From Paramecium tetraurelia (Eukaryota), in the NCBI GenBank assembly GCA_000165425.1, contig CT868085.1, positions 62,001-126,000 on the forward strand: DNA of 64,000 nt, in the 5' to 3' direction. The notes beneath the pieces were generated by a model. It did not search any database. It was given only the letters and a program-made list of their open reading frames with translations, and had not been told where the DNA came from. Made by a program: the position numbers and the translations under genes. Positions 1 through 22,000 of this stretch are shown piece by piece; the stretch's first letter is position 1, and each line of letters starts with the position of its first letter.

Positions 1-907
1 CATATCTTTAATATTATTATAAAACTACAAACTATCCTTTCCCTTCAAACTGACCATTTACAAACAAACCCTCATATTTTTCCTTATTATTAAATATTAA
101 AACTCCTTGGCCATGTTTTAAGCCATTCCGAAAATGCCCTACTTTTGTTTGTAGAATAATACCTTTATAATGAGAGTCAATCTTCACTTCAATACCATAT
201 CCATTATATTTATCATTGAACCATGAGCCTTTAAAGGGAATAATAATTTTATACCTTCATAAATCGAGCCATCCGCATAATAATACACTCCTTTACCATG
301 CATGTAATTCAAATGGAAGTCCCCACAATAATACCCTCCTTCCGAATCAAAAAATTTACCTTTTCCACTAGCATAACCATTAATCCACTTTATGTAATTT
401 AAAATTAATTACCTCGCCTTCATATCTGCTAGAATCAACAAATTTGTATTCTCCTTCACCCTAAGGTTTTTTTTTGTACCAGTATCCAGTGTAGCGTCCA
501 CCATTTCTCATCATAATGGATGGTAATTTTAACTTTTCTTTTTCACTCTTAGCTATTAATCGATTATCTTCCTCATTCAAAAGTGACAATAATTCTTTTT
601 CGAATAATTTCTCTTCACGTTCTTAACTTTATTTGCTTGATTTATTTGTACAGATAGAAGGTCTAATTTAACAGGATTCTTCTAAAGAATCAAATTCAGG
701 AACATCATCTGAGTGTGCTTATGGTACTTTTGAATTAGAGTAAACCTTGGCTATCTCAAATAATTTTCTGTATTTTTCTTAAGAACTTGATTTTGGTTTT
801 CTATTTTATAGATTTAGGTCAAACCTTTGTGAACTTTCGATGTCAAACTCAAAAACAGTCTAAAAACATTCAGTATGAACTTTAGTATGCTCAGATTATT
901 CTAGCAT
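1..907 (-). CDS. MORN-repeat protein (3' end runs off the window)
   Basis: Ciliate-code translation MLEQSEHTKVH...; repeated Y-x-G-x-W/F..GxG MORN units (GRYTGYWYKKKPQGEG, YEGE|WINGYASGKG, YCGDFHLNYMHGKG). 25-nt intron at 388-412. Confidence 0.85.
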
Positions 908-19590: not shown

Positions 19591-19771
19591 AATTAATTTT
19601 GGTTTTATACAAATAAAAATTGAATTTTATAATTCTCCTTCAATAATGCAATATTCTAAGTTTGGTTATGCTAATATTGTTTAGGTTATCCATTCTAAAG
19701 AACATCTAGAGTTTTAAAAACTTCACTTATATTGTCCATATATAATTATTAAATTGTGATGTTATTTTATT

Positions 19772-19809
19772 AAACCCATAAAATCATGGTTTTAATATTC
19801 GTTTATATA
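19772..19809 (+). promoter_or_regulatory. Ciliate snRNA-type promoter: USE (AAACCCATAAAA) plus TATA-like box
   Basis: AAACCCATAAAA at 19772-19783 and TTTATATA at 19802-19809, about 60 and 30 nt upstream of the structured RNA. Resembles the ACCCATAAA upstream element of ciliate snRNA and telomerase RNA genes. Confidence 0.7.
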
Positions 19810-19834
19810 GTGGTTTATTATTAATGATAATTTT

Positions 19835-19926
19835 ACTCATCAGTAGGTGATCCTTACCTTCACCTAATATATGATGAAAAGGAGTTAGAGAAATGATTAA
19901 CGATTCTTCTCTCCACAGCGCTGACT
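19835..19926 (+). ncRNA. U8-like (SNORD118-like) box C/D snoRNA
   Basis: Stem TAGGTGA(19844-50)/TCACCTA(19860-66) presenting ATCCTTACCT; box C ATGATGA 19871-77; stem GGAG..AGAGAA/TTCTTCT CTCC with loop containing TGATTAACG (19894-902); box D CTGA 19921-24. Same motifs and order as vertebrate U8. Ends approximate. Confidence 0.8.
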
Positions 19927-19956
19927 AAAATAAAATTATTATTATATATATATAAC

Positions 19957-22000
19957 TCATTTCTGTCTCCAACTACTGTATGAATAATTAGCCTGTTAAT
20001 TATTTATGGATTGAGAACGAGCTGATTGTGAAGTATTGTCTTGTAATCTCTATGATTACACAGTGCTCTTTTCATATGTGATACCTCTAAGATTGTCGAG
20101 TTCAGCCGACATCATGACAATGATTGTTAAGAGTTCCATAACTTTATCTGATTTATCATATGAATTTTAATTCTATTTGGTGTTTCTAACTCTAGAAAGT
20201 TCAAGAGACAACATTGCAATCTTATTCTCATATTCCTCAATCTGTCTTTTCAATTTCTCTAATTCTGCATTATTATTGTTCATCATGTAGGTTTACTATT
20301 GTTAAGCAATTAGTTATTGATTCTTGGTATTCTATTCCTAAACTTGGGTTTGGAGAGTAGAAACCTATTATTGAAATTATTAAAGTTATCTCTTTAATCT
20401 TTCATTCTCCTGCAGAATTGTGGATGTTTATGTTGACTCATAGTCTTAGATTCTGTTCACACTTGTGTTGGCATTAATTTAATAAGTACTGATTTGAGAT
20501 TAAATAACGTCAAATTGTTTGATTAATTGATCCATATCATATTACTTCTGTTCTAATATTTTTTTTAATCGTTCAATTTCATCTAAAAGTAATTCATTTT
20601 TAGTGGCTGCATCTCTGTTTGTCTTTTCTATTTACCTATAATCCAACATAGCCAATTCCATTTTTTAATACTTTTATCTCCACTCATCTGCATCTGTATT
20701 CAATTATTTTATTAGACTATTCAATCTTTCAATTTCAGTTGTTAAAACAGCTACCTTATGATCTTATTATCTCAATCTCTCATTTTATAATTGAAGCTCT
20801 TGGAATTTCAATTCAAATTGCCTAATCTTTTCTTTGTATTCCTCAAAGATATACTTCTATTTATTTGCATCACTTAAGGCATATTGATTTTATTCGATAA
20901 TCATATTAAGTTGAGATATTTCAGACATTAGAGACTGGTTCTGAGATTGCAAACGAGCAATTTAAGATTCTAATTGGCTATTTTACTCTTAAATTCTAGA
21001 CACTTCATTTCTTAATCTTCTCAACTCGTCTTCACTCAAAGTCCTCAGCTTCAATTGTAATGAGTCTATTTCTAAAACAAGCGTTTCATTGTCTCCCCAT
21101 AATTTACTTACCTCTTTATTTAGTTTAGTAATTTCATTCCTTAATAAAGCTGTTTCACTATTCTCACTTTAAATCTTTGAACTCATGCTTATTGATAATC
21201 TCTTATTCTCAGATTCCATTGATGTTAGATGCGATTCCATTTCTTATAATTTTTATTCCAACAGTCTTACACGATTCTGAGATTACTATAATTACTATCT
21301 TAACACACTGGTATCTTCAAGGGATGACTATTTTCTCCTTAAATCGTCTAATTCTCTCAGCAATTCATCTATATTTATTTACTTTTATTACTAACATTCC
21401 TTCCATTCATTTGTCTTGAAATATCTTCATATTACAATTTCTTTCTCCTCAATTCCTCTAATTCCCTCATCACTTAATCTGCACTTTACCCACCAAACAG
21501 ATTTACTTATTGGTTTAATTGCTTCTAAAATGATGCCAATTGAAGTTCAGCTTGATTCAGTTTAGCTCTCCAATTTGGATCATAGTCTTTTTGGGTTTGC
21601 TATTATCTTCTCAGTTGATCCTCCAAATCCTAGACTGTTTTTTGTAATTTTTCAACATCAATCAATAGAGTACTCTAAGAACTGACATAAAAATAACTAA
21701 AAGCCAATACTTGCTCTGCACTCTAATCTTTTCCATCAAATCCCTAATCTAACTCTCATATTGAACTCTATCCAAATTGGAATCACTATTTGATTGTAGC
21801 TCTGATTTCAATTACGCATTCTCTCTTTGTAATCTCTCGACTTCCACAGCCATTACGAACAATGTAATATCGAGTGGTAATTTAGCTCTTTTTCCTAATT
21901 CTTCAGGAGCTTAAGAGTATCTGACTCTATTATCCTTACTTGATACACTCATCGAAGAACTATATTTGGACATCGTGTATGTTCCGTTTTTGTTTAACAT
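19957..22000 (-). CDS. Coiled-coil protein with repeated (K)IAxLxxEIERL-like motifs
   Basis: MLNKNGTYTMSK... to ...YSSWRQK-TGA. E/Q/K-rich heptads with MAVEVERL, KVAVLTTEIERL, LLLDEIERL, KIAMLSLELSR. Span length implies at least one intron. Confidence 0.8.

Follow-up and report, generated by a model that had tools for sequence, protein, structure and literature searches.

Does a ciliate possess U8, the small nucleolar RNA (snoRNA) whose variants cause human brain disease? Vertebrate U8 assists the maturation of 5.8S and large-subunit (LSU) rRNA according to a review that also calls it 'unique to vertebrates' (PMC8993069), and a second source describes it as 'vertebrate specific' (10.1101/2025.10.10.681432). 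The question is raised by a locus of Paramecium tetraurelia, which lies within a stretch of 64,000 nt that was analysed as a whole (hereafter, the window). An initial annotation, made from the sequence alone, had read this locus as a shortened U8 orthologue. We put the probability at roughly 70% that positions 19838-19925 of the + strand hold an independently transcribed box C/D snoRNA gene, orthologous to TtnuCD26 of Tetrahymena, whose RNA of ~88 nt represents the U8 lineage in minimal form and whose function we infer. The features on which this reading is built are collected in Table 1.

Table 1. Coordinates of the snoRNA gene, its upstream elements and its predicted RNA motifs (positions in the window), and of the related loci in metagenomes (positions in their own contigs).
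Feature	Position	Strand	Remarks
Upstream sequence element (USE) AAACCCATAA	19772-19781	+	-66 to -57 from inferred 5' end
TATATA	19804-19809	+	-34 to -29; same in second copy
Box C/D snoRNA gene, probably U8-type	19838-19925	+	~88 nt; ends from Rfam alignment (5') and reads (3')
Conserved 5' element CATCAGTAGGTGATCCTTACCT, proposed LSU rRNA-binding guide	19838-19859	+	TtnuCD26 consensus, homologues
5' TCAG	19840-19843	+	sequence
Hairpin 1	19844-19866	+	stem TAGGTGA 19844-19850/TCACCTA 19860-19866, 7 bp; 9-nt loop TCCTTACCT 19851-19859
Box C ATGATGA	19871-19877	+	aligned to box C of U8 and TtnuCD26 models, high posterior probability
Hairpin 2	19881-19914	+	GGAG 19881-19884/CTCC 19911-19914; inner stem GAGAA/TTCTT
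Hairpin 2 apical TGATTAACG	19894-19902	+	holds GAUU
Box D CTGA	19921-19924	+	aligned to box D of U8 and TtnuCD26 models
L031 homologue	271-422	-	151-nt RNA; AT-rich contig, 25% G+C
GC-moderate U8-like gene L010 (=L025, L047, L049)	398-500		contigs of GC-moderate genes 43-47% G+C
GC-moderate U8-like gene L016	320-421	-	as above
GC-moderate U8-like gene L039	370-472		as above
L006 homologue	72-151		AT-rich, 24% G+C; box C GGATGA, box D CCGA

The gene occupies an intergenic gap. Its upstream neighbour is an anoctamin open reading frame whose product matches a macronuclear protein from P. tetraurelia at 100% identity and a P. sonneborni counterpart at 93%, and a coiled-coil open reading frame on the - strand, convergent with the snoRNA gene, ends at 19957; the reading frames of the window are open only if TAA and TAG are read as glutamine. 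The island of high G+C content that the initial annotation had described is evident from the composition (39.8% at 19838-19925, against 20.6% at 19600-19837, 3.2% at 19926-19956 and 28% in the whole window), and direct reading of the window sequence finds all of the motifs that it had listed in their places. The 20-mer at 19840-19859 occurs only once in the window even when up to three mismatches are allowed, with 0 matches expected. A spacer of 31 nt and 3% G+C (19926-19956) lies between the RNA 3' end and the point at which the convergent - strand gene has its stop codon. No T-tract lies within 35 nt downstream of the snoRNA and no run of three or more Ts is present in 19926-19956, unlike in Tetrahymena, for which T-tracts have been reported after single snoRNA genes (PMC3273799).

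Upstream of the gene, the sequence AAACCCATAA has its one exact match in the 64 kb, both strands scanned, and this match ends 57 nt before the RNA. From base composition, 0.27 exact matches would be expected per window and 1.6e-4 per 80-nt upstream zone; when one mismatch is allowed, the sequence is not enriched in the window (10 found, 8.25 expected). AAACCCATAA is the USE reported for snRNA and snoRNA genes of Tetrahymena and for ncRNA genes of Paramecium (Andersen & Nielsen, PMC3273799). Between the USE and the RNA, the sequence TATATA is a possible TATA-like element, a weak sign in DNA this rich in A and T.

Transcription was assessed with raw reads from about one third of RNA-seq run X22, a stranded oligo-dT library, of which 30 reads fell on 19700-20010. 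Read depth was 5-24 in the bins covering 19843-19930 and 0 in 19700-19842 and 19931-19952. First mates from the small RNA map to the - strand and those from the - strand neighbour gene to the + strand, and this opposite orientation identifies the small RNA as a + strand transcript. The start points of 11 molecules, at 19923 or 19925, mark the 3' ends of the RNA, the latter position being one nucleotide past box D. Coverage starts at ~19843, and homology places the 5' end at 19838 (TtnuCD26 alignment) or 19837 (U8 alignment). The snoRNA reaches a depth of 24, compared to ~6 at the neighbouring mRNA 3' end, a ratio that in an oligo-dT library does not stand for abundance proper. Discrete + strand reads confined to 19843-19925 fit the RNA of ~90 nt that the initial annotation had called for, and positions 19838-19925 are a real, expressed snoRNA gene. 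On the - strand, two Rfam matches at 19767-19849, snoR72 (24.6 bits) and TtnuHACA12 (17.1 bits), were rejected, as they score below their cut-offs and show no reads on either strand.

A second copy of the gene is present in the same organism (contigs of run X2, compared over 19767-20004). The two copies are identical over 19767-19798, which includes the USE, and over 19837-19909, and the RNAs differ solely at 19910 (T>A), a position in the unpaired bulge of hairpin 2 whose variant is found in 2 of 12 RNA reads. The flanks show five changes in 19799-19836 (including 19799-19801, 19832 and 19836) and several changes plus an indel downstream. Given that a single RNA position but many flank positions differ, the RNA body is conserved and the flanks are drifting. 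The second copy is probably the partner from a whole-genome duplication. Contigs of X12 and X14 are labelled as two other organisms; their sequences match the window completely or almost completely and therefore offer no true sister-species comparison.

To which family does this RNA belong? A scan of the whole window at Rfam gathering thresholds returned 0 matches. A permissive scan of 19700-20050 (351 nt), a stretch picked for its U8-likeness and for which alone the E-values are valid, gave 11 matches with E up to 10; among these, U8 (RF00096) had the lowest E-value (0.03; 23.2 bits, cut-off 41) and TtnuCD26 (RF02302) the top bit score (27.4 bits, cut-off 90; E 0.063). Both models align end to end on 19837/8-19925, U8 with its positions 1-135 and TtnuCD26 with positions 1-108. 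The U8 model, which the initial annotation had proposed as a check, hence covers the exact stretch at full length, with a score that falls short of its cut-off. The cut-off of TtnuCD26 appears to be tuned to Tetrahymena, as the family name and the 27-31 bits attained by the Paramecium gene and four metagenome homologues indicate.

The alignments reveal which parts of U8 are retained and which are missing. The U8 5' terminal element (model positions 1-23) is matched by UCAUCAGUA--GGUGAUCCUUAC, with posterior probabilities that mostly carry the top mark, and the first 22 nt of the RNA share 21 bases with the TtnuCD26 consensus. Besides the 5' element, three further parts of the U8 model align with high posterior probability: box C with the adjoining GGAGUUAG, the loop UGAUUA, and box D; both boxes fall on the model boxes. 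This is the order of motifs that had been read from the sequence as that of U8, and the model alignment bears it out. Hairpin 2 aligns to the model stem-loop after box C, placing UGAUUA on the consensus loop of the same sequence; GAUU is the conserved motif of the U8 LSm site, and the loop is a predicted LSm site. Two stem-loops are absent: the 23 positions of the U8 5' stem-loop (about 24-46) are reduced to 6 nt, and the 32 positions of the 3' stem-loop with its conserved loop to 5 nt. The latter has been called essential in zebrafish (2025 preprint), and the Paramecium RNA has only 6 nt between hairpin 2 and box D.

In Tetrahymena, TtnuCD26 was proposed in 2011 as "the first U8 outside metazoans" (Andersen & Nielsen, NAR 2012, PMC3273799). 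The grounds given in that paper are an Infernal match, an RNA 5' end complementary to that of 26S rRNA, and U3-like abundance, and its account of the structure, which is described as deviating, notes the lack of one U8 hairpin (the 5' stem-loop) and of the LSm motif; the supplement lists 'TtnuCD26 (U8)' as an intergenic RNA of 98 nt (PMC3273799). The Paramecium RNA resembles TtnuCD26 in its 5' 22 nt, followed in the same order by box C, an internal hairpin and box D. Both derive from intergenic single genes with the AAACCCATAA USE (at -66/-57 and exact in Paramecium, where it precedes a discrete transcript), and both lack the U8 5' stem-loop. The Paramecium RNA differs in being ~10 nt shorter, in having no room for the small 3' hairpin that bears the conserved loop in Tetrahymena, and in its hairpin loop UGAUUAACG, which contains GAUU, whereas the LSm motif is reported as not conserved in Tetrahymena (PMC3273799). 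With animal U8 (SNORD118), the RNA shares the 5' element, the order of box C and GGAGUUAG, the stem-loop with its UGAUUA loop and box D; that its 5' end also resembles animal U8 in being able to pair with the beginning of LSU rRNA is predicted from rDNAs of other organisms. It differs from animal U8 in its length (88 nt against a model of 135 positions), the missing 5' and 3' stem-loops and a score of 23.2 bits, below 41.

Additional members of the family were sought in metagenomes using an 18-nt pattern from the 5' element (with one N), which yielded 50 loci. Eight of these (L006, L010, L016, L025, L031, L039, L047 and L049) carry the full 22 nt, beyond the bases that the pattern requires, and represent five distinct sequences (L010, L025, L047 and L049 being identical). 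All eight have A at position 12 and otherwise the same 22 nt, followed by motifs that resemble box C and box D with a hairpin between them. The remaining 42 loci lack the extended 22-mer and the C/D motifs and were set aside as bacterial-looking chance matches and a repeat family; a scan of viral contigs produced two loci, which correspond to the chance matches L017 and L034. The repeat is carried by six loci that share one id prefix (L004, L015, L019, L030, L038 and L040); it is ~85-90% similar among them, begins ...AATAGAACAGTAGGTCATCCTTACCAAGG[T/C]TAGAA, has no C/D boxes and is unrelated to the snoRNA. The open reading frames in the 400-nt flanks of the homologues include no recognisable genes.

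Five of the eight homologue loci were scanned with Rfam. With 43.2 bits (E 9.5e-6), L031 exceeds the cut-off of 41 of the U8 model, and it possesses all U8 hairpins; the other four match TtnuCD26 only, at 28.5-31.3 bits (E up to 1). Combining a ciliate-type 22-nt 5' end with a full U8, L031 provides the best argument here for placing the ciliate RNAs in the U8 lineage. An upstream element of the CCCA type is found at about -50 to -75 in all homologues except L006, whose contig ends 71 nt upstream. In L031 this is AACCCACAAT, at about -75 to -66 of the RNA, which resembles the upstream element of Dictyostelium ncRNA genes; in the GC-moderate genes (L010 group, L016 and L039) it is GTCCCATAATAA, at about -61 to -50, with TATATAA at about -32 to -26. 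The GC-moderate genes differ from Paramecium in their box C variants (GGAUGA/AGAUGA), and directly after the box D-like CTGA they carry ACCTACTG, the perfect complement of their own 5' CAGTAGGT. This complementarity between 3' flank and 5' end recalls the duplex of 5' end and 3' extension in human pre-U8. In L006, the boxes are flanked by self-complementary CTAG...CTAG, which could form a stem beside the kink-turn.

These data bear on a rival view that accepts orthology with TtnuCD26 and questions the family: C/D motifs and a short 5' motif might have converged on those of U8, with the RNA serving another assembly step or target. Rfam scores under the cut-offs, the absence of two U8 hairpins, the deviating structure and missing LSm motif that Andersen & Nielsen describe for Tetrahymena (PMC3273799) and the four of five scanned metagenome homologues that match TtnuCD26 only (E up to 1) are all compatible with such convergence. 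We nevertheless consider it unlikely. Four elements fit the U8 model in both order and spacing, namely the 5' element, box C with its GGAGUUAG, the loop UGAUUA, and box D; L031, with its ciliate-type 22-nt 5' end, scores above the U8 cut-off and has every U8 hairpin; and the 5' element is, in most of the non-host rDNAs, complementary to the rRNA region reported for U8 of Drosophila, Xenopus and human (PMC3273799). Membership of the U8 lineage thus remains our preferred reading. The initial annotation had arrived at a shortened U8 orthologue in a ciliate, and its proposal is supported by the alignments to both models, the published Tetrahymena candidate, the USE and the discrete RNA, with scores below the cut-offs and two hairpins missing.

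The predicted fold of the RNA is better than expected (z -2.38; 4 of 200 shuffles as good), and hairpin 1 in particular outperforms 198 of 200 shuffles (z -3.43). Taken by itself, hairpin 2 does not stand out (z -1.09), with 28 of 200 shuffles equalling it. The perfect 7-bp stem that the initial annotation had emphasised is real; it is, however, specific to Paramecium, as it is absent from the other homologues and from the TtnuCD26 consensus. G19849 pairs with C19861, and the five other homologue sequences and the TtnuCD26 consensus all have A at this place (position 12 of the element) and lack the TCACCTA partner, which argues for a lineage-specific hairpin. In the other homologues, an alternative AGGTA/TACCT hairpin is possible inside the conserved 5' element. 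A MAFFT alignment of six homologue sequences is reliable only for its first 22 columns. Conservation in the metagenome loci is seen in the 22-nt 5' element and in the presence of C/D-like boxes; hairpin 1 is missing from them and the sequence outside the 5' element aligns poorly.

A second feature of the fold concerns the 5' end itself. The invariant 5' UCAUCA (19837-19842) is exactly complementary to UGAUGA of box C (19872-19877), and the two are paired in the minimum-energy fold; the same pairing of 5' UCAUCA and box C is found in L006. In the modelled structure, this pairing may let the RNA switch between the kink-turn form and that of a closed precursor, and may be relevant before snoRNP assembly. 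In human pre-U8, a duplex of the 5' end with a 3' extension has been reported and proposed to delay kink-turn formation. In the window, the ~40 nt that follow box D contain no complement of the 5' end, and none of the + strand reads extends past 19930.

If the RNA belongs to U8, its 5' element would be expected to pair with the start of LSU rRNA. As the window contains no host rDNA, complementarity was analysed on 54 fragments of eukaryotic rDNA that contaminate prokaryote assemblies, none known to come from Paramecium and most of fungal appearance, with LSU position 1 set 22 nt before the rDNA search pattern (Rfam). The first 26 nt of the RNA served as query on 51 of these loci, three having been dropped for too little upstream sequence. 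Thirty-five of the 51 non-host loci had their best duplex at the start of the LSU, mostly 11 nt before the pattern and corresponding to LSU nt 12-32; the other 16, including the two rDNA loci whose LSU 5' ends look least fungal (L065 and L093), had it elsewhere. How significant this is depends on how the comparison is framed. When shuffled queries were free to pair over 1.4 kb, the signal was weak: the LSU site was best in 5 of 13 non-host loci, where 4-42 of 300 shuffles matched it, and another site was best in the other eight. With the comparison restricted to a 44-nt LSU 5' site, where the U8 literature would place the target, no more than 7 of 1000 shuffles reached 33 of the 45 distinct non-host sites and 9-123 reached the other 12; rDNA locus L065 was reached by 3 and L093 by 0. 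In this test, the 22-nt segments of the RNA that pair best begin at RNA positions 1-4. Pairing of the 5' element with LSU rRNA, as predicted from these sequences, agrees with the pairing published for Tetrahymena and remains indirect for Paramecium.

The RNA could also be an ordinary 2'-O-methylation guide, in which an rRNA nucleotide is selected by the bases preceding box D, or preceding a cryptic D' box, and TGATTA represents a degenerate C' box. The boxes C and D are canonical, TGATTA does resemble a C' box, and 88 nt is only slightly above the 55-77 nt given as usual for Tetrahymena C/D RNAs (PMC3273799). Against this, hairpin 2 takes up part of the 18 nt before box D (19903-19920) in its stem, these 18 nt vary among homologues, and no CTGA-type D' box exists between box C and TGATTA. 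On the 54 partial rDNA loci (5.8S, ITS2 and at most the first 700 nt of non-host LSU rRNAs), the longest complementary run of 19903-19920 was 10, with the maxima of 30 shuffles ranging from 10 to 13. The sole conserved segment lies 5' of box C, outside the guide position, and we regard guidance of methylation as improbable. That the locus is not a functional gene at all, being a chance cluster of motifs or a dead copy, is highly improbable, since sub-threshold Rfam scores and nothing else speak for it, whereas the exact USE, the discrete stranded transcript and an RNA body conserved between two copies whose flanks differ together exclude a chance cluster, and the 22-nt element is common to Tetrahymena and the metagenome homologues.

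For the favoured reading, a U8-type snoRNA orthologous to TtnuCD26, a mechanism can be proposed. Boxes C and D would form a kink-turn and recruit the core snoRNP proteins (Snu13/15.5K, Nop56, Nop58 and fibrillarin), and the GAUU loop would bind LSm2-8. The 5' 22 nt, partly sequestered in a metastable hairpin 1, would be released to pair with LSU nt ~12-32, within the first ~30 nt of LSU rRNA, in the pre-rRNA, which might keep the LSU 5' end competent for processing and thereby allow removal of ITS2 and maturation of 5.8S and LSU rRNA, in keeping with the role given for vertebrate U8 (PMC8993069). The RNA would thus work as a chaperone rather than as a methylation guide.

A U8-type RNA in ciliates is already known, and the caution voiced at the outset, namely that ciliate U8-like candidates might pre-exist, was justified by Tetrahymena TtnuCD26, which has been in print since 2011. 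We found no mention of a Paramecium U8: among the papers searched, Paramecium and 'U8 snoRNA' co-occur only in PMC3273799, and the Oxytricha ncRNA paper contains no U8 term; the 2009 Paramecium ncRNA survey may list the gene as an orphan C/D RNA. The additions made here are therefore modest, namely that the GAUU loop is retained, that the RNA is very small and that the 22-nt element occurs among uncultured eukaryotes.

Taken further, the homologues suggest a broader scenario, which we advance tentatively and somewhat short of even odds. U8 might be an ancestral eukaryotic chaperone of LSU rRNA rather than an animal invention, with the near-invariant 22-nt 5' element acting on LSU nt 12-32 as its core. 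The 88-nt form of Paramecium (guide, box C, GAUU hairpin and box D) would then be a minimal functional U8, and the vertebrate RNA a derived and enlarged version that lost part of the ancestral complementarity. This scenario draws on the presence of the 22-nt element behind snRNA-type CCCA-box promoters in several unrelated-looking, uncultured eukaryotes (the AT-rich L006 and L031, and the GC-moderate L010, L016 and L039; the upstream sequence of L006 ends at 71 nt) and on the pairing of 3' flank and 5' end in the GC-moderate group, as in human pre-U8.

A second ciliate orthologue strengthens the 2011 proposal for Tetrahymena, as the Paramecium RNA is expressed, has its own promoter and, unlike that of Tetrahymena, carries the GAUU loop. 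The U8 core that it delimits is also very small. Given that knock-down and pre-rRNA northerns are routine in Paramecium, U8-type LSU processing outside animals becomes directly testable, and the metagenome homologues hint that this RNA could be far more widespread than has been assumed.
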